Positions 922 through 54,552 of a stretch of 64,000 nt of DNA are shown one piece after another; the first letter of the stretch is position 1, and each line of letters starts with the position of its first letter. The notes below the pieces were generated by a model that was not told where the DNA came from, did not search any database, and worked only from the letters and a program-made list of their open reading frames with translations. Location: positions 1 to 64,000 of the forward strand of contig CACZYB010000002.1 of assembly GCA_902785275.1 (NCBI GenBank), read 5' to 3'. Source of the stretch: an uncultured Pseudomonadota bacterium (GTDB taxonomy: Bacteria > Pseudomonadota > Alphaproteobacteria > Rs-D84 > CACZYB01). The position numbers and the translations under genes are program-made.

Positions 922-3876
922 TTAACATCCCTCTTTTATTAACTCCAATATTGTTTCCTGATCTGTGTATGGAATATTCTTTGTACCAAAAGTTACATAG
1001 TCCTCGTGTCCCTTTCCGGCAACCAAAATCACATCATTTTCTTTTGAAATTTCCATTGCTTTTTTTATCGCATCACGACGACCAGTCTTTATTTCAATCG
1101 CTTCTGGACAATATTTTAAAATATCGTTACGGATTTTTTGTGGATCCTCACCCCTTGGCGAATCATCAGTCAAAATAGAAACATCCGCGTACTTATGTGT
1201 TACTGTTCCAAGCTCGAACCTACGGGTGTTTGCCTCATAAATATCACCGCAAGTACTGAACACATTGATAATCCTGCCACCTTCTTTTAACATAGGGCGA
1301 AGGGTTTTAAGAGTATTTTCCAATGCTTCTCCCTTATAAGCAAAATCGACATAAATGCTTGCGCCGGATTTTGTCTTTCCCATATATTCAAGACGACCAA
1401 GGGCGTTTCTTACTTGTGAAAGAAGTGGTATTGCCTGTTCCCAATTTGGTGTTGTCGCAATAACCATACCCAATGCGCAAAGGAGGTTGTTAAGCTGGAA
1501 TGAACCAAGGATTTTTAAATCTAAGTGATACTTTTTACCAAAGATTTCAACATCGGCAACTTGACCTTCCAAACTTGTTGTTTGGTTGATGATTTTAAGT
1601 TCGGTTCCCTTTCTACCATAAGAGAAAACCTTTACACCACGGCTATCGCAAATATCTTTTAAGTATTGATACTCTGGCACATCAGCATTCAAAACTGCGG
1701 TTCCGTTTTTATCAAGGTTTTCACGGAAAAGTTTTGACTTTGATTTAAGGTATGCGTCATAGCTTCCATAAAATTCAAGATGGTCGGTTCCAAGGTTTGT
1801 AAATCCAGCCGCAGAAATCTTTATATTTTCCATACGAAGCTGATCAAGGCCATGACTTGATAACTCAATTGCACCATTTTCAACACCATACTTTTCTTTG
1901 AAGTATTTAAGGAACTTATACGCCTCACCATTACCAGGTGTTGTGTGGTCGGCATCACTGAACTTTACAATAGATTTTCGGCTGTAAACATTTTCTGCGA
2001 TAATACCAATTGTTCCAATACTTATTGTTGGAAGTGAAAGCAAGCCCCAAATTTGGCGTGTGAAATCAACAACCGAAGATTTACCACTGGTTCCTGTTAT
2101 CGCACAAATTGTTTCTGGCTGTTTTTTATCATAGAATGTAAACACCAAATCGGCCAAAGCCTTTCTTGTATTTTCAGTTCTTATAACAACAATATTTTTT
2201 TCAGAGATAAGAGCCTTTGTTTTTTCATCAAATTCGTATGATGGTTCAATAACAACAGCCTTTGCCCCCTTTGTTATTGCATCGAATGAGTAATTAGCAC
2301 CGTTCTGTGCAAAACCCTTTATACCAACAAAAATACTTCCATCAATAATAGTTTTTGAATCGCATGATACAAGGTGTATAGGAGTATCGGTTGCACCTTC
2401 TGTATCATATCCGGCTTCTTTCAAAAGAGTATTCAAAGGTTTTGATGAAAGCTGTAATTTCTTACGAATAAACTCTTTATCCTTTTCATACATTGTACCA
2501 CAAATGATGATTGAATCCCAATCTCTGGATGTATCAATAATTTCATTTATTGCATCGTAACGATTCGGAATAACCCTTGCTTTTGGACAATATTTTACCA
2601 AAGTTTTTCTGATATTTTCAGGATCTTCGGTTCTTGGATTATCATCAACGATAACAACTGTATCGGCATATTGATTTAAAACCTTTCCCATTTCGATACG
2701 GCGAATATCCGGTCTGTCGCCACTGCAACCTGCTATACAAATAAGGTTGTGTTTCACATAAGGACGAAACTCTGTCAAAAGCTTTTTAAGTCCGTCACCA
2801 TTATGACCGAAATCAACATAAATTTTTGCACCATTAGGTGTTGTCGCAACATATTCGATACGTCCCTTTTCATTCTTTATACTTGAAACAAATGGAATAA
2901 CCTTTTCCCATTCCTTATATGAAGAAATAAACATTCCAAGAGCGCACATAAAATTATATACCTGGAACTTTGTAACAAGGTTTAATGTTAAATCGTAAAT
3001 CTTATCAAATATTGATAAAGTAATTTCTTGCTTGTCTTGAACAATTTCATATTTCTTAAGACATATATCAGCATTTTCACTTTCACCATAGGTGATGACA
3101 TTTACACCACGACCTTTGCATACATCAAAAACGGTTTGACCTCTTTCATCATCAATATTTATAACCGCAGTACCGTTTTTATCAAGAAGTTCAGAAAACA
3201 AACGAAGCTTTGCATTGAAATAATCATCAACAGTTTTGTGATAGTCTAAATGATCATTCGAAATATTTGTAAAGCCAGCAGTTATAATCTTTACACTGTC
3301 GGCACGATGTTGTTCTATACCATGACTGGAAGTTTCAATCGCAACATTTTTCACACCTGATTGTGTAAGGCTATCCAAATTTTTGTGCAAATCAATCGCA
3401 TCCGGAGTAGTCAAAGTTTTTCCACCAACACCATCTGATGTGTGAATACCAACTGTACCAATAGATGCAGAATTGATATTAACAAATTCCCACATCTGGC
3501 GTACGAAATTTACAACCGAGCTTTTACCATTTGTACCAGTTACCGCACAAACAAAATCTGGTTGTAATGGATAAAAAGTACTTGCGATAACAGATTCTAC
3601 CAAACGAATATTATCAACGAAAATAAATGGAACATTTTTATAGTTTTCGGTGTTCACACATTCTTTGTTTTCCTTATCTGTTAAGATTGCAACGGCACCA
3701 TTTTTTATTGCCATATCAATAAAGTCCGCACCATTAACCTTTGTTCCCTTTATTGCAATAAAAAGACTTCCATCAATAACCTTTGTGGAATTATTCTCAA
3801 CAGATTTTATTTCTAAATCCAAATTTTTGTTTTCAATATCGTATGAAATATTTTCTAATAATTTAGCAAGTAACAT
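922..3876 (-). CDS. murE: Tandem MurE-MurE Mur ligase fusion (984 aa)
   Basis: Two complete MurE modules: GTNGKSS/TTP/ETSSHG/DHLDYH/DDNPR and GTSGKSS/TTP/ELSSHG/DHLEFY/DDSPR/AGKGHE. Confidence 0.85.
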   Translation of the reverse strand: MLLAKLLENISYDIENKNLDLEIKSVENNSTKVIDGSLFIAIKGTKVNGADFIDMAIKNGAVAILTDKENKECVNTENYKNVPFIFVDNIRLVESVIASTFYPLQPDFVCAVTGTNGKSSVVNFVRQMWEFVNINSASIGTVGIHTSDGVGGKTLTTPDAIDLHKNLDSLTQSGVKNVAIETSSHGIEQHRADSVKIITAGFTNISNDHLDYHKTVDDYFNAKLRLFSELLDKNGTAVINIDDERGQTVFDVCKGRGVNVITYGESENADICLKKYEIVQDKQEITLSIFDKIYDLTLNLVTKFQVYNFMCALGMFISSYKEWEKVIPFVSSIKNEKGRIEYVATTPNGAKIYVDFGHNGDGLKKLLTEFRPYVKHNLICIAGCSGDRPDIRRIEMGKVLNQYADTVVIVDDNPRTEDPENIRKTLVKYCPKARVIPNRYDAINEIIDTSRDWDSIIICGTMYEKDKEFIRKKLQLSSKPLNTLLKEAGYDTEGATDTPIHLVSCDSKTIIDGSIFVGIKGFAQNGANYSFDAITKGAKAVVIEPSYEFDEKTKALISEKNIVVIRTENTRKALADLVFTFYDKKQPETICAITGTSGKSSVVDFTRQIWGLLSLPTISIGTIGIIAENVYSRKSIVKFSDADHTTPGNGEAYKFLKYFKEKYGVENGAIELSSHGLDQLRMENIKISAAGFTNLGTDHLEFYGSYDAYLKSKSKLFRENLDKNGTAVLNADVPEYQYLKDICDSRGVKVFSYGRKGTELKIINQTTSLEGQVADVEIFGKKYHLDLKILGSFQLNNLLCALGMVIATTPNWEQAIPLLSQVRNALGRLEYMGKTKSGASIYVDFAYKGEALENTLKTLRPMLKEGGRIINVFSTCGDIYEANTRRFELGTVTHKYADVSILTDDSPRGEDPQKIRNDILKYCPEAIEIKTGRRDAIKKAMEISKENDVILVAGKGHEDYVTFGTKNIPYTDQETILELIKEGC

Positions 3877-4005
3877 TTATCTTATCCCTTCATATTAATA
3901 CCATAGTATTTTATAGGAAAAAATATAACTAATCAATAGAAAGTTTTTCTTGTATATTTATTGAAAAAAATGTAAAATCAAACCTTGAAAAAAGGGGTTA
4001 TTATT

Positions 4006-5184
4006 ATGAAAAATTTTGAAAATTATGATGTAATCAGAGTTTTTGATGAAAAAGCTTTTGATGATAATGTAAAAAAGGCAAAAAAAATTTTTGGCTCAAA
4101 GCTTGGGGTTGTAATAAAATCTAATTCTTATGGTATAGGTATTGAAAAAACTTTGCCAATTTTTGAAAAGAATAAAATTTCAAATTTTTTCTGTCAGGAT
4201 ATTATTGAGGCATTAAATGCAAAATCGATTATTTCCAACCCTGATGCAAATGTATATACCTTTGCCGGCGTACAAAAAGGTCAGGAAAAAACATTTGCAG
4301 AAAATAAAATTATTCCAATTTGTATAAATCTTGATCAAATCAAAAATTATAACGAAGTACTTAAAAAATTAAAGAAAACCGCAAAAATCGGTATACATTT
4401 TGATACAGGTATGAACCGTACCGGTCTTTCATTAGTTGAGGTAGAGGAGCTTTCAAAAAATTTTAAGACATTAACTTCAAACCTTGATGTCGTTTTGTAT
4501 ATAAGTCACCTTCACAGCTCTTATACAAAAAAAGATAGGGCGAACGATGCACAACTTGCATGTTTCAAAAAGATGACTTCTATGCTTCCAAAGGCAAAAT
4601 TAAGCCTTTCTGCAACTGGTGGTTCGTTCCGTCTTCCATTAGATTATCATTTTGATTTACTAAGGGTAGGTTACGGTATCTATGGTGTTCTTCGTGAAAT
4701 GAAACCTGTTATTTCTATATATGCAAAAATTTTGCAAATTCGTGATGTATGTAAGGGGGCATCTATTGGTTATTTCGGTGGATACATGGCTCCTAAAAAT
4801 ATGAAAGTTGCCATTTTAAATATTGGTTATAAGGATGGTTATTCAAGAAGCTTAAGCCATACAAATAAATGGAAAGATAAGATTCGTGCAATGCTTAAAA
4901 GTGGTGCAAACTTTGCAACATCTTATATGGTAATTGATGGAAAGTATAAATGTCCAGTTGTTGGTATTATTTCCATGAATAATACAATAATTGATGTTTC
5001 CAATGTCCCAGAAAATATTTTGAAAAAATCTTTGTGGGCAGAAGTTATTGGTAAAAATGCAAATCTTATGGATTTTCGTGAAGCTAATGGTTTTATTCCA
5101 TGCGATTTGTTGACATCACTTTTGCAACAAAATCCAAATGCAGTTGATATGGATACAAAAGAATTTCAAAAGCTTAAAATTTAA
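4006..5184 (+). CDS. alr: Alanine racemase family PLP enzyme (divergent)
   Basis: VIKSNSYGIG (PLP Lys), HFDTGMNRTG, SIGYFG (catalytic Tyr), IGYKDGY; ATG 4006 follows AAGGGG. Confidence 0.75.
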   Translation: MKNFENYDVIRVFDEKAFDDNVKKAKKIFGSKLGVVIKSNSYGIGIEKTLPIFEKNKISNFFCQDIIEALNAKSIISNPDANVYTFAGVQKGQEKTFAENKIIPICINLDQIKNYNEVLKKLKKTAKIGIHFDTGMNRTGLSLVEVEELSKNFKTLTSNLDVVLYISHLHSSYTKKDRANDAQLACFKKMTSMLPKAKLSLSATGGSFRLPLDYHFDLLRVGYGIYGVLREMKPVISIYAKILQIRDVCKGASIGYFGGYMAPKNMKVAILNIGYKDGYSRSLSHTNKWKDKIRAMLKSGANFATSYMVIDGKYKCPVVGIISMNNTIIDVSNVPENILKKSLWAEVIGKNANLMDFREANGFIPCDLLTSLLQQNPNAVDMDTKEFQKLKI

Positions 5185-7717: not shown

Positions 7718-8629
7718 TTAAGGATTTTCAAGTTTTCTTGAACCGATAATTTTTATTTCGTATTCAAGCATTATTCCAAATTTTTCATAAACCATCAATC
7801 TTACTTTTTCCGCCAAATCCTCAATATCAGCAGATGTTGCATTGTCTTCATTTACAATGAAGTTTGCGTGAACAGGGGATACAACTGCACCACCCAATTT
7901 CATCCCCTGACAACCAGCTTCTTTAATAAGCTTCCATGCAGGATGTTCTGTACTTGGGTTTTTAAAAGTAGAACCAGTTGTTTTTGTATATGTTGGTTGT
8001 ACTGAATCTTTTTTGGTTTTTATTTCATCCATTTTTTTAAGGATTTCTTCTTTCTTACCGGCAACACCCTTAATTACAACAGATGTGAAAACCCAACGTG
8101 AAGAAATATTGGATTTACGATAAGAAAAACCACATTCATCTAAAGAGAAAGTCTTTTTTTCACCATTTATTTTATCAATAGCATCAACTGATACAACAAT
8201 ATCTTTCATTTCACCGCCAAAACAACCGGCATTTGTAAGTATTGCACCACCAATAGTACCAGGGATACCAAACAAAAATTCCATCCCAGAAATATTGTTT
8301 TCAGCACAAAACTTTGAAATTGCAATACTTGATGTAAATGCACCACATCTTATTGTAGTATCATCGATTTTTTCAATTTGTGAAAAGTTATCATTTTGAA
8401 GTCTTATCACAATACCATTCAAAACACCATCACGAATTAGTACATTGGAACCAAATCCAATTATGTGTATAGGCATATCCTTAGGAGCCTTTTTCAAAAA
8501 ATTTGAAAGGTCATCAACATCGCGTGGGGAAAAGTAAACTTCAGCCACACCACCAGTCTTAAATCTTGTTAAACTAGCAAGTTCGTAATCTTCAAGTAAT
8601 TCGCCTTTTACTTTTGGTAAATCTTTCAT
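7718..8629 (-). CDS. murB: UDP-N-acetylenolpyruvoylglucosamine reductase
   Basis: GFGSNVL, IPGTIGGA, FSYRKS, GSTFKNP, HANF. Confidence 0.95.
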   Translation of the reverse strand: MKDLPKVKGELLEDYELASLTRFKTGGVAEVYFSPRDVDDLSNFLKKAPKDMPIHIIGFGSNVLIRDGVLNGIVIRLQNDNFSQIEKIDDTTIRCGAFTSSIAISKFCAENNISGMEFLFGIPGTIGGAILTNAGCFGGEMKDIVVSVDAIDKINGEKKTFSLDECGFSYRKSNISSRWVFTSVVIKGVAGKKEEILKKMDEIKTKKDSVQPTYTKTTGSTFKNPSTEHPAWKLIKEAGCQGMKLGGAVVSPVHANFIVNEDNATSADIEDLAEKVRLMVYEKFGIMLEYEIKIIGSRKLENP

Positions 8630-8639
8630 AATAAGCTTT

Positions 8640-10043
8640 CTATTTTGTTAGTAAATCTGGTAAATCATAAATGTAATGTTTTATGCTTCCAGCACCAAGT
8701 GACACAATTATATCACCAGATTTTGCATTTGACAATATAATCTCAGTGATTTCATTGAACTTGTTGATTTTAAAGGATTTTTTTTCACCAAGTTTCAACA
8801 TTGCCTCGTAAAAATCATCATGTGTCTTCATATTATCCGAAGATTCTCCAGCCGCATAAACTGGCATACAGATAACATAGTCTGCATTGTTAAAACATTT
8901 TAAAAAACTTTCGAATAAGTCTGTTAATCTTGAATATCTGTGTGGTTGGAATATTGCAAAAATCTTTTTATCCTTTGCAATACCACGAGCCATAGCAAGA
9001 GTTGTTTCAATTTCCTTTGGATGATGACCATAATCATCGAAAATGGTAATACCATTAACTTCCGCAACCTTTGTAAATCTGTGCTGTGTTCCGGTAAATT
9101 CCTTAACTCCGGCCAAAATCTTTTCATCAGAAATATTTAAAAACTTTGCAATAGCAATAGATGCCAAAGAATTAAGTACATTATGTTTTCCGAAAAGTGG
9201 TAATGAAAAACCTTTAATAACTTTTCCATCAGCAAACTTTACATCAAAATGTGAACCATTTGTATCAAAAGAAATATTTTCAGCCATAATATCGGCCTTG
9301 TTATCAATACCGTATGTTATAACATTTTTTTTACCAATAACTTCGTTTGCAAGCTCCAATGCAATAGGGTGATCAGCACATGCAACAACCAAACCATCCG
9401 CTGGAACTCTTCCAATAAAATCTCTGAAATAATTTTTAAGGTTATCAAATGTCTTATAATATTCCATGTGTTCAGCATCAATATTTGTAACCACAGCAAT
9501 ATCAGTTGTATAATGTTTTATATTACCAAAAGCTTCACATGCTTCGGCAACAATATAATCGCCACTACCAACCTTTGCATTTGAACCATATCTATTCATA
9601 ATACCGCCATCAATGATTGTTGAATCAAATCCAGCAACATCAAGCATAGTACCAACGAAAGAAGTAGTTGTTGTTTTTCCGTGCGTTCCAGAAATAGCAA
9701 TAGATTTTTTAAGTGTAAATACATATTGAAGCATTTCGGCACGTTCAATAATAGGAAGCCCACGTTTTTTTGCCTCTACCATTTCAACATTATTTTCAGG
9801 TACAGCAGAAGAAAATACAACATAATCTGCACCATCAATGTTTTCAGCCTTATGTCCGACAAAAACCTTTGCTCCCATATTCTTAAGGGCAAGCATATTT
9901 TCGCCCTCAACTTCATTTGAACCTTGAACACAAAAACCAGTTTTAAAAAGAACTTCAGCAATAGAACTCATTCCAATGCCATCAATACCAATAAAGTGGA
10001 AAACTTTTGATTTTGAAAGCTCTTTTAAATTCATATCTAACAA
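8640..10043 (-). CDS. murC: UDP-N-acetylmuramate--L-alanine ligase
   Basis: FIGIDGIGMS, GTHGKTTTTS, DDYGHHPKEI, FQPHRYSR; dcw position. Confidence 0.93.
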   Translation of the reverse strand: MLDMNLKELSKSKVFHFIGIDGIGMSSIAEVLFKTGFCVQGSNEVEGENMLALKNMGAKVFVGHKAENIDGADYVVFSSAVPENNVEMVEAKKRGLPIIERAEMLQYVFTLKKSIAISGTHGKTTTTSFVGTMLDVAGFDSTIIDGGIMNRYGSNAKVGSGDYIVAEACEAFGNIKHYTTDIAVVTNIDAEHMEYYKTFDNLKNYFRDFIGRVPADGLVVACADHPIALELANEVIGKKNVITYGIDNKADIMAENISFDTNGSHFDVKFADGKVIKGFSLPLFGKHNVLNSLASIAIAKFLNISDEKILAGVKEFTGTQHRFTKVAEVNGITIFDDYGHHPKEIETTLAMARGIAKDKKIFAIFQPHRYSRLTDLFESFLKCFNNADYVICMPVYAAGESSDNMKTHDDFYEAMLKLGEKKSFKINKFNEITEIILSNAKSGDIIVSLGAGSIKHYIYDLPDLLTK

Positions 10044-10044
10044 T

Positions 10045-11145
10045 TTAAAAACCTTTTTTCTTTTTAATTACACAGTCAACCAATTCAGCAATATTTTTGC
10101 TTGCATCATTTTTGACTTGAAAGATTTTAGCTTTTTTCGCCATATTTTCAAGTAAATTTTCATCTTTTACCATTTTTTCTAGGACTTTATACAAATTTTT
10201 GGCAGAAAACTCAGGTTGTGGAATAATTTCACCACCGCCAACCGATGTAATTTGTTCAGCATTTATGAATTGTTGTCTATCTTTATGCATAATAGGAATA
10301 AAAATCGAAGGTCTTCCAACTGTTCCTATTTCCAATACTGTTGATGCACCGGCACGTCCAATAAATATATTTGCCAATGCCAAGAGTTCCGCTGGGTTAG
10401 TAAAGAATGGTTTTATTTCTGCCTTTACCCCAATTTTTTTGTAAAACTTTGAAATTTTATTAACATCTTCGGCAACAACCTGTTGGTAAACGAAAAATCT
10501 TTTCTTTTCCTTTGTATCAAATAAAGAAATTGCCTTTGATACTACATCCCCAAAGATTTTTGCACCTTGTGAACCACCCATAACAACAATATTTATTGTT
10601 TTCCCACCCTTAACAGATTTAAATGGGACATTTGCTACAGCTTTTACATCCTCACGTAATGGAAGTCCGGTAAAGTGAACTTTTGCCTGTGGTGGAATTT
10701 TTTTTGTATCTTTAAATGAAACCATAGTTACATCTGCAAACTTTGAAAGTAATATATTTGCATTTCCAAGTATAGAGTCTGCATTATGCACAAAAGTCTT
10801 CTTTCTTAAAATCTTTCCCCATAAAACAACAGGAACGGAAATATATCCCCCCATTCCAATAACGGCAACGGGGCGTATTTTAAGCATAAAGAAAAATGTT
10901 TGAATAAATCCAACTGCAAGCTTTGAAAGACTTCTTAATCTGTAAAAAAAGCTTTCTCCACTCATACCGCCACCGATAATAACCGAAATATTTTCAAATT
11001 TATCGGCAAATCTTTTACCTCTTTTATCGGTAATCAAATAAACTTTGTATCCAATATCTTCCAATGCCTTCTTTATAGAAGAAGCAGGAAATAAATGTCC
11101 GCCAGTACCACCGGCACCAATTACAACTCTATTATTTTTCTTCAT
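10045..11145 (-). CDS. murG: Lipid II GlcNAc transferase
   Basis: GGTGGHLFP, GGYISVP, GGSQGA, RAGAST. Confidence 0.93.
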   Translation of the reverse strand: MKKNNRVVIGAGGTGGHLFPASSIKKALEDIGYKVYLITDKRGKRFADKFENISVIIGGGMSGESFFYRLRSLSKLAVGFIQTFFFMLKIRPVAVIGMGGYISVPVVLWGKILRKKTFVHNADSILGNANILLSKFADVTMVSFKDTKKIPPQAKVHFTGLPLREDVKAVANVPFKSVKGGKTINIVVMGGSQGAKIFGDVVSKAISLFDTKEKKRFFVYQQVVAEDVNKISKFYKKIGVKAEIKPFFTNPAELLALANIFIGRAGASTVLEIGTVGRPSIFIPIMHKDRQQFINAEQITSVGGGEIIPQPEFSAKNLYKVLEKMVKDENLLENMAKKAKIFQVKNDASKNIAELVDCVIKKKKGF

Positions 11146-11148
11146 ATC

Positions 11149-12417
11149 TTATCTCCGTAAATTTTGATCTTGAAGTAATGATAAAATAATTCCTATGGCA
11201 ATACAAGAAGAAATAAATGATGATCCACCATAAGATATAAATGGCAAAGTCATACCCTTTGTTGGGCCAATACCCAATGTCGAAATAAGGTTATATAAAA
11301 TCTGGAATGTTATATAGCTTGTAATACCAATTCCCGCAAATACAACAAACAAATTATCTTTTGTTTTAAGCTTGTAAAGTATATGCAAAATCAAAGTTAA
11401 AAACATAAGTATCAATAATATGGCAAGTATAGGACCAGTTTCTTCAATTACTGCTGCGAAAATAAAATCGGTATGAATATCCGGAACAACAGTTTTTAAA
11501 TTATTTGAATGCCCACCAAACAAAAGGTTTGATTCTTTTATCGCTTCCAAAGCCTTTTGTAATTGATAATTATCATCTGATAAGAATTGATTAACTCTGT
11601 GTGCAAAATGTGGCAAGAAAAAGTATATTAAAGGAATTCCGCATAATGCCAAAGCAATACCAATAACCACAATACACCATGGAAGCCCCGCCGCAATAAT
11701 CTCGGATAAAAATATTACACCAAAGGTTACGGTCATACCAACATCTGGTTGTTTAAGCAAGATTCCACAAATTACCAAAGTAATCCCCGCCAAAAGAAAT
11801 ATGTAATTTTTTCTACGTTTCTTAAGTTTCTGTACTTCGGTAAGTTCTCCATTCTGTTTCGATTTTCTTTTGAATAAAGAAATAAACGCCCCAAAAAATT
11901 TTGAAATACAAATCATTATTCGTAAAATAAATACAAATACGCCATTTCTTTTCTTTTGATTGGTATTTTCTTTTAGTGCATTTCCAAGCTCTTTTATCCT
12001 TACTAAAATCATGGCAATAACTATTGCAAAGAATGGTTTCAAAAATTCAGAAGGTTGTATTTTCATAAAACCAAGATTAATCCACCGAGAAGCCCCCTTT
12101 GTCTTTGCAAAAAATAATGTTACGAATAATAAAAAGCAAATAAAAGGAAACGTAAAAAGAGCATACTTTCTTATTGTCTGAACTTTTATCGTCGATATCG
12201 TAATCATTGCACCAATACCAATCCAAATGTAAACAAAAATATTTTTCACAAAGTGATATTCATCACTAAGCCCCATTCGTCTTGCTTGGTATGGACTTGC
12301 AGAAATTTGAATAACAATACCAAATATGATAAGAGCAAGTACAGAAAATAAAATTATCTTATCAACTCCAAGCCACCACTTGGCCAGCCAATTATTTTCT
12401 GTACGTCTTATAAACAT
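11149..12417 (-). CDS. ftsW: SEDS peptidoglycan polymerase FtsW
   Basis: GASRWI, QPSEFLK, QPDVG, HTDFIF, KGMTLPFISYGGSS. Confidence 0.92.
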   Translation of the reverse strand: MFIRRTENNWLAKWWLGVDKIILFSVLALIIFGIVIQISASPYQARRMGLSDEYHFVKNIFVYIWIGIGAMITISTIKVQTIRKYALFTFPFICFLLFVTLFFAKTKGASRWINLGFMKIQPSEFLKPFFAIVIAMILVRIKELGNALKENTNQKKRNGVFVFILRIMICISKFFGAFISLFKRKSKQNGELTEVQKLKKRRKNYIFLLAGITLVICGILLKQPDVGMTVTFGVIFLSEIIAAGLPWCIVVIGIALALCGIPLIYFFLPHFAHRVNQFLSDDNYQLQKALEAIKESNLLFGGHSNNLKTVVPDIHTDFIFAAVIEETGPILAILLILMFLTLILHILYKLKTKDNLFVVFAGIGITSYITFQILYNLISTLGIGPTKGMTLPFISYGGSSFISSCIAIGIILSLLQDQNLRR

Positions 12418-12420
12418 ATA

Positions 12421-13839
12421 CTATCCTAATTTCTTAGCATACTTTTCTTTTATTTCTTTGAACAAAGCCTTGAAGTGATCTCCTCTTTCTTCAAAAGATT
12501 TATATTGATCAAAAGATGCAGTTGCAGGTGATAGAAGAATAATAGGTTTTTCAACCTTTCCCTTCTTCAAATCTTTTAATGCAAGTTTAAAAGCCTTATA
12601 AACAGCCTTATCCAACTTGTGACATTTATAAGAAGGAATTACATTCTTTGTTACGGCATAGAAATTCTTTTCACATTCTCCAATAACAAAAGTACGCTTA
12701 ATATTTCCATCGCCAAGTTGTGGTTTCAAAAGGTCGATACCGCCTTCCTTTTGTCTTCCACCAATAATCCAATAAATATCTTTCATTGAATCAATCGCAT
12801 ATTTTACAGATTCTGCGTTAGTAGCCTTTGAGTCATCAATAAATTGTATTCCGGCAAATGTACCAACATCTTCAATTCTGTGTTCCAAAGTTTTAAATGA
12901 CTTTATTGCATTTATAATCTTTGTTGTAGGAAGCCCAGTCTTTTTAACAGCAGCAAATACCGCAACAATATTTTGCCAGTTATGTTTTCCACGAAGGTTT
13001 GTAAGGGTTTTCAAATCGAAAATTTCCTTTTTTTCACCTTTTGTGTTATCAATCAAAATACCATTTGATGAAACATAGTATCCACCATCAACTTTTTTCG
13101 AAGAAGATACAGGAATATTTTTTGATTTTGGTTGTTCATTGCAAAGTTCGTTGAAAATCTTTTTTGTGTGATTATCATCAACTGCAACAACATTAACTGC
13201 ATTTTTTCCAGACTTTCTTGTAAATATTTGTTTCTTTACTGCAATATATCCATCCATACCATTGTGACGTGACAAATGATCCGGAGTAATATTCAAAAGA
13301 ACAGAAATATCAAAATCAATAGATGGAGAAAGTTCAATTTGGTAACTTGACATTTCAAAAACGTAGTAACCATCACTTCCAAGTACTGGTAAATCGAAAA
13401 CAGGAATACCAAAATTTCCACCAATTGCACATGGAATACCATTTTCTTTTAATATATGATATATAAGTGCGGTTGTTGTCGATTTTCCATTTGTTCCTGT
13501 AATACCGATATATTTTGCATCCTTATATGACGAAACAAAAAGTTCAATATCAGAAATAATTCTAACATTATGTTCCTTTGCCAATTTTGCAACAGGATGA
13601 GGAGCAGGGTAGGTATGAGGAATTCCTGGACTTATAATCAAAAGTTCCACAGTCGAAAAGTCCACAGTTTTCAAATCTTGAATTGAAACATTTAATTTTG
13701 CGGCTTCTCTTCTTAATTCTTCTTTATCGTCCCATCCAATTACATGAACGCCACGAATTTTTAATTCTCTTGCAACTGCCATACCTGTCTTACCAAGACC
13801 AAGAATAGCAACGGTTTTATTAAGTAAATTATTAATCAT
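12421..13839 (-). CDS. murD: UDP-MurNAc-L-Ala--D-glutamate ligase
   Basis: GLGKTG, SPGIP, GTNGKSTTT, EMSSYQ, DDSKATN, LLSPATASFDQY. Confidence 0.95.
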   Translation of the reverse strand: MINNLLNKTVAILGLGKTGMAVARELKIRGVHVIGWDDKEELRREAAKLNVSIQDLKTVDFSTVELLIISPGIPHTYPAPHPVAKLAKEHNVRIISDIELFVSSYKDAKYIGITGTNGKSTTTALIYHILKENGIPCAIGGNFGIPVFDLPVLGSDGYYVFEMSSYQIELSPSIDFDISVLLNITPDHLSRHNGMDGYIAVKKQIFTRKSGKNAVNVVAVDDNHTKKIFNELCNEQPKSKNIPVSSSKKVDGGYYVSSNGILIDNTKGEKKEIFDLKTLTNLRGKHNWQNIVAVFAAVKKTGLPTTKIINAIKSFKTLEHRIEDVGTFAGIQFIDDSKATNAESVKYAIDSMKDIYWIIGGRQKEGGIDLLKPQLGDGNIKRTFVIGECEKNFYAVTKNVIPSYKCHKLDKAVYKAFKLALKDLKKGKVEKPIILLSPATASFDQYKSFEERGDHFKALFKEIKEKYAKKLG

Positions 13840-13853
13840 TTAATCCTCTGAAA

Positions 13854-14927
13854 TTATCTTATTTTAAGTGATGATAAAGCAACCAAAGCAAGTATTATAG
13901 ATATAATCCAAAATCTTATAACAACGGTTTGTTCGCTCCAACCTTTAAGTTCAAAATGATGATGGATTGGTGCCATACGGAAAAGTCTTTTACCTCTGAA
14001 CTTGTATGATGCAATCTGAAGCATAACAGAAAGAGCTTCTACAACAAAAATCATACCGCTGATAAGAAGTAAAAATTCACTCTTTGTAATAACACTTATA
14101 ACGCCAAGTCCTGATCCCAAGGCAAGTGATCCAACATCACCCATAAATATTTTTGCAGGATAAGCATTGAACCATAAAAATCCAAGTACTGCACCAATAA
14201 TTGATCCAATCAAAACTGTTACTTCACCAACTCCTGGAACGTATGGAAGGAAAAGGTAAAGTGAATAATCTGAACGGCCAATCAAGTATGATACAAGCAA
14301 GAATACAGCAAATGAACTTATCATTGTCATACTTGCAAGTCCATCAATACCATCAGTAAGGTTTACTGCGTTTGCTGTACCTACAATAACAAATGCAACA
14401 AACAAGAAATAAATTATTCCCAAATCCCACAAAATGTTTTTGAAAAATGGCATTGTGATTGTCATTTTAAACTCATTAGGCATAAGACTGTAAATACCAA
14501 AACAAATAATACCACTTAAAGCAAATTGAAGAACAAGTCTTAATTTTGCAGAAAGTCCACGATATGCATTTCCGTGAACAACTTTGAAATAATCATCTAC
14601 AAATCCAATCGTACCAAATGAAAACATTGTGAAAAGAACAATCCAAATATATCCATTTGTTAAATTACACCATAAAAGAGAAGATGTAAGGATTGAAAAT
14701 AAAATCAAAATTCCACCCATAGTAGGGGTACCTTGTTTTTTAAGATGAGTTTGTGGCCCCTCTTTTCTTATAGGTTGGGTAAACTTTGTTTTAATAAAGT
14801 TTATAAACCTGTTTCCGAAAAATATATAGATGAAAAGAGATGTTAAAAGAGCACCTCCGGTTCTGAAAGTAATATATCTAAAAAGATTAAATATATTGTC
14901 AAAATAAACACTTAAACTATAAAACAT
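13854..14927 (-). CDS. mraY: Phospho-MurNAc-pentapeptide transferase
   Basis: TPTMGG, NAVNLTDGIDGL, FMGDVGSL, APIHHHFE. Confidence 0.96.
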   Translation of the reverse strand: MFYSLSVYFDNIFNLFRYITFRTGGALLTSLFIYIFFGNRFINFIKTKFTQPIRKEGPQTHLKKQGTPTMGGILILFSILTSSLLWCNLTNGYIWIVLFTMFSFGTIGFVDDYFKVVHGNAYRGLSAKLRLVLQFALSGIICFGIYSLMPNEFKMTITMPFFKNILWDLGIIYFLFVAFVIVGTANAVNLTDGIDGLASMTMISSFAVFLLVSYLIGRSDYSLYLFLPYVPGVGEVTVLIGSIIGAVLGFLWFNAYPAKIFMGDVGSLALGSGLGVISVITKSEFLLLISGMIFVVEALSVMLQIASYKFRGKRLFRMAPIHHHFELKGWSEQTVVIRFWIISIILALVALSSLKIR

Positions 14928-14990
14928 TTTACACCTCGTTTGTTGTTTTTTATATTATAGCACAAATTTTATTGATTCTTAAGTTTTTTT

Positions 14991-16664
14991 TTATTTTTTT
15001 GAAATTTTAAGGTCAAGGTTCAAAATAGGTGTAATTTCATTTATAATTTTCGCAGAAACTGGCACTGTTGTACATGCCGCAGTATTGCATCCGTTGTTAT
15101 TTGCTTCATCAAGCATAACAAGCATAGTATACTTAGGGGCATTTGTAGGGAATATTGAAAGGAAAAATGTACGTGTTTTTGTACTATCATACTTTCCATT
15201 TATAAGTTTATACGAAGTTCCGGTTTTTCCACCAACCGAAATATCATGAAGATTCGCCATATATCCGGTACCATTTGTAACAACCAATCGCATAAGCTTT
15301 CTCATCGCATCGGATGTTTCTGGACTTACTACTTGGTATGATTTTAGAACTGAATTTTCATCACGTTTAAGTATTGTTGGGTTTATAAAAAGTCCATCAT
15401 TCACAATTGCATTTACCGCAGTTACAACATGAAGCATAGATGGCGATAAACCGTAACCATAACCAATTGTTGCATTCGCATGTTCGTTCCATTCCTTTGG
15501 TGTCAAAGGTTGTCCTCTTTCTGGAAGTTCAAAATTTATCTTTGAAAGAAGGTTAAGCTTATTTAAAAACTCTTTTTGCTTATCAATGCCCAAATCTTTT
15601 GCAATGTTTGCCATAACAATATTAGACGAGTAAATAAATCCCTCTGTCATATTCAAAAGCCATTTTTTTGGATGAGAGTCTTTTACTCTGTGATTTCCAA
15701 CCATAAATACTTTTGATACATCAAAAATTTTATCGTTCGGATATCCATTTTCTATTGCTAGGGCTGTATTAAAAATTTTCATAACAGACCCAACTTCGTA
15801 AACATCCAAAGTTGTGTGGTTGTTATAAAGAGGGTTAAGAACAATATTTTTATATTCATTATTATGAAAATCAGGCAAAGAAACCATACCCAATATTTCA
15901 CCGGTTTTCACATCAATCACTATACCGCCGGCACTTTTTGCACCATATTCTTCCATTGCTTTCATAAGGTGTTGCCTTATAGCATCCTGAATATAAATAT
16001 CAACGGAAAGTTCAACCGGTTTTGAAGAATTTATCAACTTCTTTTCATCAATATATTTTTCAATTCCACCCATTGCTTTATTATCAACATCAATGGTTCC
16101 TATTATGTGAGAAAAAAGATTGGATTGAGGATATACACGTCCTTCATTTTTAATAAATCTGAAGCCTGGTTCACCAATAAGGGTAATTTTTTCTTGTTCA
16201 AATGGTGAAATTTTTCGTGAAAGGTAAATAAATTTTCTATTTGATTTTACTTTTTTAATAATGTCGTTATAGTTCAAATCAGGCAAAATCTTAACTAACT
16301 TTTTAACTGATTCTTCTGGATAGACCATATATCTTGGATCAGCATACAAATCCACAGTGGGAAGATTCGTTGCCAAGATTTCACCGTTTCTATCTGTAAT
16401 ATCTGGTCTGTGGAAAGAAGATGTAACTTTGTTTGTTTGATTAACTTTTGTATCCAAAAAATTAAACGTAATTTTCATAGATAAAACTTTTACTATTATA
16501 AGTAAAAATGCAATAATGCAAATCCATGAAAAAAAATTGACTCTTTTTTCAGTAGTTGTTTTATTTTTTTCATTAAGCCATTCTAACGGAATATCATCCC
16601 CGAAAACATAGTTTACAGTTTCTTCTTTTTCCTTTTTTAAAAAATTTCTAAAGAATTTTACCAT
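14991..16664 (-). CDS. ftsI: Class B penicillin-binding protein FtsI/PBP3
   Basis: RPDITDRNG, SVMK (SxxK), SSN, KTGT; dcw position. Confidence 0.9.
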   Translation of the reverse strand: MVKFFRNFLKKEKEETVNYVFGDDIPLEWLNEKNKTTTEKRVNFFSWICIIAFLLIIVKVLSMKITFNFLDTKVNQTNKVTSSFHRPDITDRNGEILATNLPTVDLYADPRYMVYPEESVKKLVKILPDLNYNDIIKKVKSNRKFIYLSRKISPFEQEKITLIGEPGFRFIKNEGRVYPQSNLFSHIIGTIDVDNKAMGGIEKYIDEKKLINSSKPVELSVDIYIQDAIRQHLMKAMEEYGAKSAGGIVIDVKTGEILGMVSLPDFHNNEYKNIVLNPLYNNHTTLDVYEVGSVMKIFNTALAIENGYPNDKIFDVSKVFMVGNHRVKDSHPKKWLLNMTEGFIYSSNIVMANIAKDLGIDKQKEFLNKLNLLSKINFELPERGQPLTPKEWNEHANATIGYGYGLSPSMLHVVTAVNAIVNDGLFINPTILKRDENSVLKSYQVVSPETSDAMRKLMRLVVTNGTGYMANLHDISVGGKTGTSYKLINGKYDSTKTRTFFLSIFPTNAPKYTMLVMLDEANNNGCNTAACTTVPVSAKIINEITPILNLDLKISKK

Positions 16665-16667
16665 AGC

Positions 16668-16979
16668 CTACTCAAATTGTGGATTAACGGGAATATCAAT
16701 AACTCTTATAAAATCATTTGGAGTTATGTTTTTATAATTTTTAAGGTAATTATTGGAAAGTTCCTTTACTTTTGAAATGGATGTGAGATGAGAAATTTCT
16801 GTCTTAAGTATTTTTATTTCGACATCAGTTTTTGAAATTTCTTCATTGAACATATTTATATTTTTATCAAACTGACTTATCTTCCATTGCAATGTAAAAG
16901 AAATTATTGCAGAAAAAATTTCTACCAAACACAAAATTGATAAAACTAAAGCTTTTGATTTATTCAATTTGCCCCTCAA
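16668..16979 (-). CDS. ftsL: Cell division protein FtsL-like
   Basis: TM helix plus coiled coil between rsmH and ftsI. Confidence 0.65.
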   Translation of the reverse strand: MRGKLNKSKALVLSILCLVEIFSAIISFTLQWKISQFDKNINMFNEEISKTDVEIKILKTEISHLTSISKVKELSNNYLKNYKNITPNDFIRVIDIPVNPQFE

Positions 16980-16987
16980 AAATAAAA

Positions 16988-17914
16988 TTACAATTTTTCC
17001 ACAACACGAAGTTTTGCAGATCTGGCCCTTGGGTTTACATCAACTTCTTGTTTCGAAGGAATTATAGCATTTTTATTAACACTTTTAAAGGATAAATTTT
17101 CATTATTTTTTATATCAATAGGAACATAGCGAGAGAATGTTTGTTTTGCCTCTGTTTTTGATTTTATAAAATTTTTTACAATTCGGTCTTCTAATGAATG
17201 AAAATCAACAACAACTAACCTTCCTCCACTTTTAAGTAAAGATTCGCTGTCCGATAAAATATGTTCCAATTCGCCAAGCTCATCATTCACAAAAATTCTT
17301 AATGCCTGAAAAATTCTTGGTGTAATTTTTGATGCCTGCCATTCACCGAAAAGATTTTTTATTATTCCAACCAATTCAAATGTTGTGCATATAGGTTTTT
17401 CACCTCTTAAACTTACAATTCTTCGAGCCAAAGCACGTGATCTTGGTTCTTCACCATACTTATAAAATATATCAGAAAGTTCAGATTCGGAAAAATTGTT
17501 TATAACTTCTTTCGCATCCAAATCATTTTTTCCCATTGCCATAGAAAGTGGTGCATCAAATCGAAAAGAAAATCCACGTTCTGGAGTATCAATTTGCATT
17601 GATGATACGCCAATATCTAAAACCAAGCCATTAACTTTATCAATACCATTATTTTGAAATGTAGGAAGTATTTGCGAAAAACAATTTTGAAAAAAGGTAA
17701 ATCTTTCACCATATTTATCTTTTAATTCTTTTACCCTAGGAAGTACAGTTTCATCCCTATCAAATGCAATAACTTTTGTATTTGCCTTATCTAAAATTGC
17801 AGATGTGTATCCACCATTGCCAAAAGTCCCATCAACATAAACACCCCCATCTTTTATATTAAGATTTTCTAATACTTCATTAAGCATTACAGGAATATGA
17901 GGTGTATCTTGCAT
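16988..17914 (-). CDS. rsmH: 16S rRNA m4C1402 methyltransferase
   Basis: HIPVM, DGTFGNGG, DIGVSSMQ, FHSLEDR, NPRARSAKLR. Confidence 0.96.
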   Translation of the reverse strand: MQDTPHIPVMLNEVLENLNIKDGGVYVDGTFGNGGYTSAILDKANTKVIAFDRDETVLPRVKELKDKYGERFTFFQNCFSQILPTFQNNGIDKVNGLVLDIGVSSMQIDTPERGFSFRFDAPLSMAMGKNDLDAKEVINNFSESELSDIFYKYGEEPRSRALARRIVSLRGEKPICTTFELVGIIKNLFGEWQASKITPRIFQALRIFVNDELGELEHILSDSESLLKSGGRLVVVDFHSLEDRIVKNFIKSKTEAKQTFSRYVPIDIKNNENLSFKSVNKNAIIPSKQEVDVNPRARSAKLRVVEKL

Positions 17915-17916
17915 AT

Positions 17917-18366
17917 TTAATCCTTTTTAAAAGAAAGTGAAGGGCGATTTTTGAATGCTTTTTCTCTTGTTTCCTTTTGATATTTTTCAAATTCGTCCTT
18001 GTTCCATATTTGAAAAGTTTTACCCCTTCCAACAAAAAGGGCGTTTCCATTTATTCCGGCAAATTCAAGTAAGTCAGCAGGAATAACAATTCTTCCGGTA
18101 ACGTCAAACGAAAGTTGTCTTGCATCAGAAAAGATAAGAGAATTTAAATTTTCATTTTCTTCACTAAATAAATCTAAATTATCAGTTGCATCAGAAAGCT
18201 TCTCCATTCTTTCCATTGTGCAACCTTCAATACATTTATGTGTGAAAGAGTGATAAAGTATCACACCCTGAAAGTCATCATTTTTGGTTGCCATACGAAA
18301 ATCTGAAGGCACACTTACGCGTCCCTTTGCATCAATTTTATTTTCAATAGTACCCAAAAATAACAT
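17917..18366 (-). CDS. mraZ: dcw transcriptional repressor
   Basis: IDAKGRVSVP and FDVTGRIVIP repeats; first gene of dcw. Confidence 0.94.
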   Translation of the reverse strand: MLFLGTIENKIDAKGRVSVPSDFRMATKNDDFQGVILYHSFTHKCIEGCTMERMEKLSDATDNLDLFSEENENLNSLIFSDARQLSFDVTGRIVIPADLLEFAGINGNALFVGRGKTFQIWNKDEFEKYQKETREKAFKNRPSLSFKKD

Positions 18367-32308: not shown

Positions 32309-32842
32309 TATAGGTGATTCGCTTATTTTTTCTTTTGTAAGTCGTTGAAAATAGGAAAAAATTCTGCTGATAAGGTATACTATATTTTTTTTCGATAAGA
32401 TTTGAGCGACTCCCCTGAAAATCTTGGATATAAGGAAATGATACTTATTCCAAAAGCTGTAATAAATGGAAAAAATCACAAAATTGCTTAAAAAAATAGT
32501 TTCTTAAAATGGCTGATTTCTCAGATTTATCTATATATCATCAAAGTATTATATCACAAAAAAATATTAAATTATAGATTTTTCTATACTTTTCCTTAGT
32601 CAAGCATTTTATTTTCAAAAAAACACAAAATATAGTTTGCATTCATTTCAAAAACACTATATATTGAATCATAGAAAAAGGCTCGAAAGCGGGAACTTTC
32701 AAGCCTTCAAATATGGAAAAGAATTTATCATCTTTTCACTTAGTATGTATAGAATGATAACTTCTTTTCTTTGGCATGTCAAGTGCAACTTGTAATATTA
32801 ATCTTCTAGTGTAAAAGCTAGATAAACGAAAAGGAGTTTGTA

Positions 32843-33073: not shown

Positions 33074-33075
33074 AA

Positions 33076-34338: not shown

Positions 34339-34347
34339 GAGAATGAA

Positions 34348-34760: not shown

Positions 34761-34768
34761 GGCTGATT

Positions 34769-37754: not shown

Positions 37755-37818
37755 ATATTGAAATTTTAGGATTTGTTTACTATATATATTTTATAAGTTA
37801 ACAAGGAAGGAGTTTGTA

Positions 37819-38568: not shown

Positions 38569-38590
38569 ATACTTCTCAAACTCACATAAA

Positions 38591-52962: not shown

Positions 52963-54552
52963 ATGTTTATAACTTTGATTTTCTTGGCAACTATTTTCTT
53001 TGTATATAAAAGGACTTTATTTTACAGTCTTTTTTTTCAACAAGAACGTTACGAAACAAAATCTTTTTTAAGGTTTATATTTAAAAAATTTCAACTTATA
53101 GATAAAAGATTATCTGTAATTTTATTTTTCTATACAATATTTGCGACAGGTACAAAAATATATAATCTAGATATGAGTATTATTTCGGGATTGTTTTGTA
53201 TTTTTGCTTTGTTAACACCAAACCCACGTTCCGGTTTCGCAAAGAAAAAACTTGATATTACAAAAAGATTGAAAAGAATATTAGAAGTTTCTTTCGCTCT
53301 TGATGCAACTTTTTTGATTGCAATTTTGTTTTATATCCACAAACTTAATGTAAAAAATATTTACTGTTTCTGTGAAGTTATGGGATATATGATTTTGTTT
53401 GTACAAAGTCTTCCATTTATGTTGATTGTATCAAATTTGATTCTTTCACCAATAGAAATTTTTGTAAAAAAGCATTATGTATCAGATGCAAAATCAATCA
53501 TTAATAAATATAAGCCAATAGTTATTGGTATTACTGGTTCATTCGGTAAAACAAGTACAAAAAATATTTTGAATCATATCTTGTCATCCGTTGCATCATC
53601 AATGACTACTGCAAGAAGTATAAATACTTTAATGGGTATAACACAGGTAATTCGTGAAGAATTAAAACCATCATACAAATATTTTATTGTTGAGGTTGGT
53701 ACTTCGAAAAAGGGAAGAATAAGAAAAATTTGCAACCTTATTAAACCACAATATGGTATTTTAACAGCGATTGGTTCTGCTCATTTCGAAAGCTTTAAAT
53801 CAAAGGATGCAATCGCACGTGAAAAATTTGATTTGATAAAATCTGTTGTTGCAAACGATGGTTCTTATATTATAAATCCATTTTTGGTAGATGAAAAATA
53901 TATCAAAAAATTCCATGCGGACAAAACTGATTTTTCAACATCCGATGTTACCGTTACATCAAAGGGTATAAGTTTCACACTTAAATACAATAAACAAAAG
54001 TACGATATTTCAGCCCCTATATTTGGTACACATCAGGCGCAAAATATTTCCCTTACATTTATTATGGCACTAAAGCTTGGTATCCCTGCTGATACTATAA
54101 TTGCAGCCCTTAAAACCCTTCCTCAAACAGAACATAGATTAGAGGTAAAAGATCAGGGTGGTATGATAGTAATTGACGATGCGTTTAATTCAAACGTTGA
54201 AGGTTTCAAATCTGCACTTTCCACACTTCACATTATTGCAAAGGAAAAGAAGGGCCGTGCAATTTTGATTACCCCAGGTATGGTAGAGCTTGGCCGCGAA
54301 CACGATTCTCAACACAAAGAAGTCGCAAACGTTGCCCTTGAAACTTGTGATATTGTGATTGCCGTTGTACCAGAAAGAATAAAGGCATTTGTCTCAAAGT
54401 TCACTGCGGAAAAATCTGTTAATCAAGAAATCATTCTTGTAAACACTCTTGCCGAAGCACGCCAGTGGCTTTCTGCAAATTCGAAAAAGAATGATGTCGT
54501 TCTTTACGAAAACGATCTTCCTGATGTATTTGAAGCAAAAATAAACATATAG
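52963..54552 (+). CDS. murF: MurF-family ligase with N-terminal TM helices
   Basis: GITGSFGKTSTK, IDDAFNSN, TPGMVELG, LYENDLPD; hydrophobic first ~160 aa. Confidence 0.8.
   Translation: MFITLIFLATIFFVYKRTLFYSLFFQQERYETKSFLRFIFKKFQLIDKRLSVILFFYTIFATGTKIYNLDMSIISGLFCIFALLTPNPRSGFAKKKLDITKRLKRILEVSFALDATFLIAILFYIHKLNVKNIYCFCEVMGYMILFVQSLPFMLIVSNLILSPIEIFVKKHYVSDAKSIINKYKPIVIGITGSFGKTSTKNILNHILSSVASSMTTARSINTLMGITQVIREELKPSYKYFIVEVGTSKKGRIRKICNLIKPQYGILTAIGSAHFESFKSKDAIAREKFDLIKSVVANDGSYIINPFLVDEKYIKKFHADKTDFSTSDVTVTSKGISFTLKYNKQKYDISAPIFGTHQAQNISLTFIMALKLGIPADTIIAALKTLPQTEHRLEVKDQGGMIVIDDAFNSNVEGFKSALSTLHIIAKEKKGRAILITPGMVELGREHDSQHKEVANVALETCDIVIAVVPERIKAFVSKFTAEKSVNQEIILVNTLAEARQWLSANSKKNDVVLYENDLPDVFEAKINI

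Follow-up and report, generated by a model that had tools for sequence, protein, structure and literature searches.

A conserved tandem fusion of two MurE-family ligases with differently remodelled amino-acid pockets in gut alphaproteobacteria

Here we describe a tandem MurE-MurE fusion, P0001, encoded in a 64,000-nucleotide stretch of DNA (the window) that forms positions 1 to 64,000 of contig CACZYB010000002.1 from an uncultured alphaproteobacterium (assembly GCA_902785275.1, here G000). We conclude with high confidence that P0001 represents a conserved fusion of two MurEs whose catalytic cores are intact and whose pockets have been remodelled in different ways, that its second module carries the housekeeping function, and that the lineage lacks synthesis of diaminopimelate (DAP) and lysine. 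It is a nearly even call, falling slightly on the side of doubt, that the two heads also differ in their specificity for the residue at position 3 of the stem peptide. In that case module 1 would be DAP-type, module 2 would take a non-DAP residue, probably lysine, and the C-terminal domain of module 1 would serve in addition for docking.

Background

The residue that cross-links peptidoglycan is set by MurE. Hosts also sense peptidoglycan by this residue, fragments of the DAP type being recognised by NOD1. In the paper on the E. coli MurE structure, the Arg of the GGDR motif is reportedly the third ligand of the distal carboxylate of meso-DAP. The N and R of the DNPR motif hold the same carboxylate, and the distal amine is held by the D of DNPR and a Glu (PMC3829189). 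The Lys-type MurE of S. aureus has DNPA in place of DNPR (PMC3829189).

Fusions of Mur enzymes are known, and a survey that excluded unidentified species names MurE-MurF, MurC-Ddl, MurC-MurB, MurG-MurC, MurD-FtsW and MraY-MurG (PMC10214165). MurE-MurE is not among these six types; supplementary Fig. S1 of that paper, which lists chimera types, might include one. A full-text search of 8.4 million texts found no mention of "MurE-MurE", and no fusion of two MurEs with diverged pockets was found in the literature searched. Below, G numbers denote genomes, P numbers proteins or protein clusters, L numbers loci and f numbers families of the order.

Results and discussion

One reading frame encodes two complete MurE modules

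The gene lies on the minus strand, a point on which the preliminary description of this DNA was silent; it starts with ATG and is preceded by a Shine-Dalgarno-like AAGGGA. It is laid out as follows (aa, amino acids):

922..3876, minus strand: murE-murE open reading frame (ORF) P0001, 984 aa, stop codon counted in the span
2482..3876, minus strand: module 1 (aa 1-465), with full N-terminal, central and C-terminal domains of MurE
2482..2886, minus strand: C-terminal domain of module 1 (aa 331-465), with the DTSRxWD motif at aa 448-454, a predicted contact with module 2
2392..2481, minus strand: linker (aa 466-495), comprising the helix KDKEFIRKKLQ and then the start of module 2; the least conserved stretch
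925..2391, minus strand: module 2 (aa 496-984), a full MurE that has both the tail and AGKGHE
1936..2004, minus strand: loop specific to module 2 (aa 625-647, IIAENVYS...HTTP), the predicted contact for the module 1 C-domain

Each of the Pfam models for the N-terminal, central and C-terminal Mur-ligase domains (PF01225, PF08245 and PF02875) matches P0001 in two stretches. When the protein was split at residue 480, its halves scored 363.7 and 345 bits on the MurE model TIGR01085 (cut-off 257.3), compared with 92 and 96 bits on the MurF model TIGR01143 (cut-off 288.6), 77-84 bits on MurD and 61-69 bits on MurC. On a hidden Markov model (HMM) that we built from 213 stand-alone MurEs, the halves reached 503-557 bits. 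Aligned with each other over 483 columns, they share 39% identity (E 4e-105). The earlier claim that one 984-aa ORF holds two full MurE modules is thus upheld, and a MurF identity for either half is excluded by the TIGR01143 scores, by our own model and by the tree, in which neither half groups with MurF.

The motifs quoted in the preliminary description were all recovered, each occurring once: DFGHNGD (residues 355-361), DDNPR (411-415) and CGTMYE (459-464) in module 1, and DHLEFY (within 697-704), DFAYKGE (844-850), STCGDIY (874-880), DDSPR (904-908) and AGKGHE (953-958) in module 2. Module 1 also retains the P-loop TGTNGKSS, ETSSHG, NDHLDYHK, the H of DFGH and the R of SGDR. CGTMYE stands in it where AGKGHE would be expected, and the C-terminal tail of 26-27 aa is absent. 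Short contigs from two metatranscriptome libraries cover parts of both modules, with carry-over of DNA a possible source, and a promoter and terminator scan gave 15 promoter-like sites against 14.9 in shuffled sequences, that is, no excess.

The fusion is genuine and widespread in the family

A word-indexed search returned 25 protein clusters of 897-984 aa with 53-87% identity to P0001, and those that carry names are labelled as proteins of Alphaproteobacteria or Rickettsiales metagenome-assembled genomes (MAGs). When 97 long proteins were scored on our own HMM, 25 had both halves at 400-566 bits and are two-MurE proteins; the second halves of the remaining 72 scored 24-121 bits, which marks them as MurE-MurF. 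Among the 18 other genomes of the window's family, 16 contain a match to P0001: 13 are near-full length and free of internal stops, one is split at contig ends (G002) and two are truncated (G006 and G007). The two genomes that lack a match are 61% and 70% complete. Ten named MAG contigs with the fusion come from deer, termite, human and other gut samples, and a 385-nt contig from a different study spans positions 2271-2655, across the junction, with two differences.

These observations bear on the possibility that two adjacent genes were wrongly joined, or a repeat collapsed, during assembly or gene calling. Nothing was found in favour of such an artefact. The halves, at 39% protein identity, are too diverged to collapse, the same single ORF recurs in the 25 clusters from separate sources and in MAG contigs from different hosts, the 13 other family genomes carry it at near-full length, and the junction is bridged by the independent contig. 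We therefore regard the artefact as practically negligible and the junction, which the preliminary description had flagged for checking, as genuine.

The window's genome, 1.05 Mb in size and 95.7% complete, contains five Mur_ligase_M domains, two in P0001 and one each in MurC, MurD and a MurF-like protein. A profile search of this genome found no separate murE. The three refuting outcomes that the preliminary description had named and that sequence analysis can address, a half that groups with MurF, an artefactual junction and a canonical murE elsewhere, were thus all checked, and each check favoured the fusion. The fusion predates the diversification of this family of gut alphaproteobacteria with genomes of ~1 Mb and ~30% GC.

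Two differently altered amino-acid pockets

For an audit of the pockets, both modules were aligned with the 213 stand-alone MurEs, which are 440-560 aa long and are the nearest relatives (37-46% identity). In that set 61 columns reach a conservation of 98% or more; module 1 keeps 53 of them and module 2 keeps 52. Six of the changed columns are changed in module 1 only, seven in module 2 only and two in both, so that the earlier description of two differently altered pockets holds. In module 1 the substitutions are G to T302, A to G357, G to S385, D to P389, A to C459, K to T461, G to M462 and Q to K465. In module 2 they are D to E701, H to Y703, H to Y847, G to S874, G to C876, D to A882, N to S906 and Q to V961, together with loss of the GGDR Arg, accompanied by a two-residue insertion. 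All lie in the C-terminal domain, where the incoming amino acid binds, except T302 in module 1 and E701 and Y703 in module 2, and 9 of the 17 are fixed in 22 of 22 full-length family members.

Several of the altered positions are close to invariant elsewhere, and the deviations lie well beyond chance. The H of DYAH, the R of GGDR, the N of DNPR and the K and G of AGKGHE are the canonical residues in 212-213 of the 213 stand-alone MurEs. The Asn of DNPR, present in all 213, is retained in the DDNPR of module 1 and replaced by Ser in module 2 in all 22 full-length proteins. Neither module has lost the D or R of DNPR or the pocket Glu. The pair that goes with the meso-DAP type, the GGDR Arg and AGKGHE with its tail, is complete in neither module: module 1 has the Arg, and module 2 has AGKGHE and the tail.

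Each module of P0001 shares the three-domain fold and the ATP/Mg motifs of stand-alone MurE (E. coli 1E8C/7B53; M. tuberculosis 2WTZ). Unlike those enzymes, P0001 has two modules per chain, module 1 is without AGKGHE and the tail, and module 2 has DSPR, no GGDR Arg, Tyr in place of two invariant His residues and a longer loop before TTP. The altered DNPR of module 2 recalls the L-lysine-adding MurEs, in which the motif has changed along with a non-DAP substrate: DNPA in S. aureus (4C12; PMC3829189) and, by alignment, DDPR in T. maritima (4BUB). Unlike the S. aureus enzyme, however, module 2 keeps the Arg, and the changes from His to Tyr and the loss of the GGDR Arg are absent from the S. aureus pattern.

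Catalytic cores are intact and under selection

Both modules retain the P-loop, the Mg-binding Glu of ExSSHG, the DH of DHLD and the Lys aligned with the carbamylated Lys, and every conserved column of the N-terminal domain is kept in both. In the central domain the conserved columns are likewise retained, with a single exception per module (G to T302 in module 1, H to Y703 in module 2). Mean pairwise identity among the 22 full-length proteins is 0.657 for module 1 and 0.657 for module 2; no domain of the protein is better conserved than the C-domain of module 1, at 0.78. Ratios of nonsynonymous to synonymous substitution (dN/dS; Nei-Gojobori, six pairs, with dS close to saturation in some of them) were 0.07-0.15 for module 1 and 0.055-0.12 for module 2, and within module 1 they were 0.09-0.40 for the N-domain and 0.09-0.19 for the central domain. 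Both modules are under purifying selection.

An AlphaFold2 model of P0001 computed from 27 sequences had a mean predicted local distance difference test (pLDDT) score of 91.1 and a predicted template modelling (pTM) score of 0.83, with the same secondary structure repeated in both halves. As single units the modules superimpose on the MurEs of E. coli, S. aureus and M. tuberculosis with template modelling (TM) scores of 0.81-0.85 (0.84-0.85 for E. coli and S. aureus).

Truncated relatives and a predicted docking domain

Two genomes of the window's genus, G006 and G007 (93% and 96% complete), encode shortened ORFs of 650 and 618 aa. In each, a degenerate remnant of the module 1 C-domain, ~140 residues long, precedes the linker and a module 2 that is intact; alr, the alanine racemase gene, adjoins the ORF, as it does in the window. 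Protein clusters P0029 and P0030 are of the same truncated kind, and P0121 and P0122 likewise carry the remnant. Four Mur_ligase_M domains were counted in G006 and in G007, as against five in G001, G011 and G016. In the tree, module 2 of G006 and G007 nests inside the genus, and the loss of module 1 is therefore secondary. Since module 2 is the sole MurE of these two genomes, it is a sufficient, housekeeping MurE.

What is left of module 1 in the truncated proteins points to a second role for its C-domain. In P0121, P0122, P0029 and P0030 the catalytic and pocket motifs are gone, and the fold, as predicted, and the interface motif are retained. An AlphaFold2 model of the truncated protein (pLDDT 87.5, pTM 0.88) has the remnant folded. 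When module 1 (residues 1-476) and module 2 (479-984) were submitted as separate chains to complex prediction, the score was 0.79 (runs of 0.47, 0.79 and 0.79) against 0.01 for the best control; contact agreement between runs was at least 32% and partner pLDDT at least 83. Of 80 solved complexes 58 reached the mark, as did 2 of 110 mismatched pairs, counts that are rough for the present case, in which a custom alignment was used. The predicted contacts on the module 1 side are confined to the C-domain (347-348, 376-377 and 434-453), and those on the module 2 side fall at residues 631-640 and 960-969, in the loop and the C-terminal tail. The segment from the P-loop to ESSHG that contains this loop is 69 residues long in module 2, compared with 51-68 in the 213 stand-alone MurEs (60 in 139 of them).

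Just eight columns of module 1 are invariant across all 27 proteins, the four truncated ones included; D448, S450, R451 and W453 are among them, and D448, R451 and W453 are predicted contact residues. In the truncated forms, 26 of 60 interface cells are identical to the full-length majority, the figure for the remaining cells of the domain being 107 of 448. A second role, as a docking domain on module 2, is predicted for the C-domain of module 1, and it would account for the survival of a degenerate copy in species that have lost everything else of module 1.

Several features set P0001 apart from the MurE-MurF chimera of Bordetella pertussis (PDB 8F5D; PMC10214165), likewise a head-to-tail pair of Mur ligases, to which P0001 is also similar in its predicted fixed contact between modules, and the top match of P0001 in both sequence and Foldseek searches. 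The second module of P0001 is a MurE, in contrast, and on the MurE-MurF model NF008896 the protein scores 693 bits against a cut-off of 1023. Superposition on 8F5D is poor (root-mean-square deviation 16.7 Å over 830 columns, TM 0.40-0.49). In 8F5D a hydrophobic patch lies between MurE and the N-terminus of MurF (PMC10214165), whereas in P0001 the C-domain of module 1 is predicted to meet the central-domain loop and the C-terminal tail of module 2.

Docking could also be all that module 1 does. It would then be a non-catalytic pseudo-ligase that clamps module 2 through the loop and the tail, stabilising or gating the only real MurE of the cell. This account draws on the confinement of the predicted interface to the module 1 C-domain, on the truncated species, which retain just that domain, its interface motif kept and its pocket motifs gone, and on the absence from module 1 of the K and G of AGKGHE and of the tail, near-universal in the stand-alone MurEs. 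A clamp, however, would have no need of the P-loop, the Mg-binding Glu, DHLDYH, the His of DYAH, the Arg of GGDR or DNPR, all of which module 1 has kept. Nor would it call for the constraint on the N-terminal and central domains seen in the dN/dS values above, or for pocket segments of the C-domain that are the best conserved of all (0.78). We consider the clamp unlikely. The preliminary description had suggested that one module may be a scaffold. That suggestion gains from the predicted docking of the C-domain and its survival as a remnant, and loses from a full-length module 1 that keeps its ATP/Mg motifs under purifying selection.

Origin of the modules and a second MurE-MurE

Module 1 and module 2 each form a clade with 100% support in the Shimodaira-Hasegawa-like approximate likelihood ratio test, and the branching inside one clade mirrors that inside the other, from which it follows that the fusion is older than the family. 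In a quick tree, module 1, module 2 and the stand-alone MurEs formed a trichotomy.

Among the best 150 matches listed from an exhaustive phmmer search of 1.84 billion representatives, one further protein, P0367 (979 aa), consists of two MurE halves. These score 399 and 400 bits on our own HMM, and TIGR01085 matches the protein in two stretches with 941 bits. Identity is 52% between the halves and 28-30% with the modules of P0001; the 52% makes this duplication younger than that of P0001. Like P0001, P0367 has two full MurEs that differ at DNPR and at the GGN loop, half 1 having DNPR and half 2 DNAE with an altered loop. Unlike in P0001, both halves keep AGKGHE and the tail. A search of metagenome contigs for its context found four loci, none of them P0367 itself, and the three that could be classified are ordinary separate murE and murF genes. 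A set of longer MurEs was also observed (P0132, P0135, P0137, P0150, P0175, P0252, P0368 and P0483; 746-794 aa), with a C-terminal extension of ~300 aa that in some gives a weak second match to the Mur_ligase N-domain; these may be MurE-MurF chimeras with long linkers, or may carry decayed second modules.

Diamino-acid supply in the lineage

None of the 19 family genomes, of which 13 reach a completeness of 90% or more, gave a DapF or a DapA. In G000 neither DapB nor Asd was found. No LysA scored above the cut-off. Ornithine carbamoyltransferase (OTC) and arginine deiminase (ArcA) were not found in G000 either, and there is therefore no evident source of ornithine. An LD-transpeptidase (YkuD), sought as a hint of 3-3 cross-links, was likewise not found in G000. 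Because Asd, DapA, DapB, DapF and a true LysA were not found, the position-3 residue would have to be imported. L-lysine would be the likeliest candidate, since it must be imported for translation anyway; a class I lysyl-tRNA synthetase is encoded at 54622-56220. The preliminary proposal of a non-standard chemistry at position 3 is plausible, and the failure to find Asd, DapA, DapB or DapF adds weight to it.

The rest of the pathway is in place, with alr, MurB, MurC, MurD, MurG, MraY, FtsW, FtsI and MurI present for peptidoglycan synthesis and Ddl found in 17 of the 19 family genomes at E <= 1e-60. In the genus, the Ddl ORFs (G000:C1:28166-29275 and orthologues) are ~400 aa long compared with the usual ~300, and score 212-239 bits where the TIGR01205 cut-off is 245.65. 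A second ATP-grasp protein of ~477 aa also gives a weak match.

One LysA-like protein was considered as a DAP decarboxylase and rejected. This 479-aa PLP decarboxylase scores 126.6 bits against a cut-off of 297.9 and occurs in 5 of the 19 genomes (G000, G006, G007, G012 and G014); a link between it and the murE-murE fusion was not accepted. Its cluster in G000, which lies outside the window at G000:C2:152900-158300 (L047 4906-10275), also encodes a Fur-like regulator, a ParA/MinD-like ATPase, a fusion of a CysK/CysM-like protein with a rhodanese and a SufS-like desulfurase.

A comparison across the order, which covers few and related lineages and so gives a pattern and no statistic, sets DapF beside the MurE pocket. 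DapF was found in two of three f6 genomes, in none of four f2 genomes and in none of 18 f1 genomes. The two f6 MurEs examined have DDNPR and retain the GGDR Arg, one column off in the alignment. All three single f2 MurEs examined have SPR, lack the loop Arg and carry an insertion at the position of the module 2 loop. At the f2 loci L040-L042 the motif reads TDSPR, YISPR and YLSPR where others have NPR, with GQGHE or GKGHE. In the f2 genome G028, ~110 aa of open frame precede the MurE match, which makes 615 aa altogether. In a further family of the order, f4, the 12 genomes (G021, G025, G029 and G032-G040; 98-100% complete) gave no match to P0001 at E <= 1e-20 and no DapF, the MurE family model not having been searched there; these relatives may be wall-less or much reduced.

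The supply side also admits another account, in which both modules add scavenged meso-DAP and the tandem duplication has been fixed for dosage, for stability or for subfunctionalised kinetics such as a high- and a low-affinity site. In its favour, DAP-containing wall debris is plentiful in the gut, each half scores as MurE and retains the D and R of DNPR together with the pocket Glu, and a clade that unites modules 1 and 2 is not rejected. Such redundancy, however, sits badly with changes at residues that are invariant in 212-213 of 213 stand-alone relatives of the DAP type, several of the substitutes being fixed in 22 of 22. The changes of module 2 recur, moreover, in f2, which lacks DapF, and the two f6 MurEs, from a family with DapF in two of three genomes, keep DDNPR. 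In P0367, an independent fusion, the two halves are again unlike at DNPR. We judge redundancy to be rather improbable.

Sequential action on one stem peptide

A tandem enzyme might act twice on the same peptide, as the preliminary description had proposed when it suggested that two residues are added in sequence. Module 1 or 2 would add residue 3, and its partner would then add a further residue, such as a branch attached to residue 3 or D-Glu, or would take over part of the work of MurF. The two active sites per chain invite this idea by analogy with the MurE-MurF chimeras (PMC10214165). The state of MurF in G000 fits it as well:

52963..54552, plus strand: MurF-like ligase, 529 aa; 215.4 bits on TIGR01143 (cut-off 288.6)

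This protein, below the family cut-off, is the only MurF candidate in G000, and its N-terminal ~184 aa match no model. An unusual N-domain, the domain that binds the tripeptide, would equally fit an unusual residue 3. The gene lies ~40 kb from the dcw cluster, and orthologues of 532-545 aa occur in G001, G006, G007, G011 and G016.

The truncated species count against sequential action, and they weaken the earlier suggestion: G006 and G007 are without the catalytic domains of module 1 and yet keep MurC, MurD, module 2, the MurF-like protein and Ddl, so that two species manage with module 2 alone plus the MurF-like protein and Ddl. In addition, the N-domains of both modules, which bind the UDP-MurNAc-peptide, keep all the conserved columns of ordinary MurE, and we know of no Mur ligase that adds a side-chain branch. 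The probability that we attach to sequential action is very low.

A proposed division of labour

We propose that P0001 is a head-to-tail fusion of two catalytically competent MurE-family ligases in a lineage that would import its position-3 residue. Module 1, in which the R of GGDR and the N and R of DNPR are all kept, would be a DAP-type site. Module 2, having lost two ligands of the distal carboxylate as have the f2 MurEs, would be a site for another scavenged diamino acid, most likely L-lysine. UDP-MurNAc-tripeptide would be made from whichever substrate is at hand, and the C-domain of module 1 would dock on module 2. The full picture is rather less likely than not and is put forward only tentatively: a two-headed MurE in a DAP/lysine-auxotrophic lineage of the Gram-negative type, which uses meso-DAP and another diamino acid, probably L-lysine, for a mixed or switchable chemotype, with an obligatory docking C-domain, the tandem arrangement having evolved at least twice (P0367).

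Several points weigh against this division of labour. We infer the specificity of each module from motifs alone. Such a reading is weak in that, in the experiments described in PMC3829189, swapping motifs fails to convert the specificity of MurE, and the S. aureus enzyme is presented there as having no positive determinant for lysine. Both modules may still accept meso-DAP, a use that the kept D and R of DNPR and pocket Glu leave possible for either, and the organisms would then simply scavenge DAP. The absence calls for the biosynthetic genes rest on MAGs that are 61-97% complete, and the analysis identified no importer of either DAP or lysine. The missing K and G of AGKGHE and the missing tail could abolish catalysis by module 1. 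Its N-terminal and central domains have been lost in at least two genomes (four protein clusters), and its catalytic part appears to be dispensable in the truncated species. The docking score is a measure of model confidence and the docking a prediction. Finally, approximately unbiased (AU) tests reject neither a clade of module 1 with module 2 (p 0.858) nor a clade of module 2 with f2 (p 0.79).

If the heads do differ in specificity, P0001 would be a single natural enzyme that encodes two wall chemotypes, and it would show how gut bacteria with reduced genomes maintain a wall without DAP synthesis. It would also provide a related pair of pockets for the study of MurE specificity, which motif swaps have left unexplained. 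If module 1 is instead a clamp, it would be a clear example of a duplicated enzyme turned regulatory subunit, and a single genus would harbour both the intermediate and the end state. The lineage may assemble its wall peptide by an undescribed route that starts from scavenged amino acids.

Genomic surroundings

Two further features of the window concern the wall:

3985..5184, plus strand: alr (alanine racemase), the neighbour of murE-murE and divergent from it; the same neighbourhood is found in G006 and G007
7718..18366, minus strand: dcw cluster, mraZ-rsmH-(103-aa ORF)-ftsI-mraY-murD-ftsW-murG-murC-murB

In the ftsI-mraY part of the cluster (13854-16664, minus strand) the two genes follow each other directly, and the murE-murF pair that is usual at that place is missing. 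Beyond murB, an S41 C-terminal processing protease (6142-7605) and an RgpF-like ORF (5181-6002) stand instead of ddl-ftsQAZ. The GC content falls to 24-26% in positions 32001-48000 of the window, compared with 30-35% elsewhere, and the GC skew changes sign near 20 kb.

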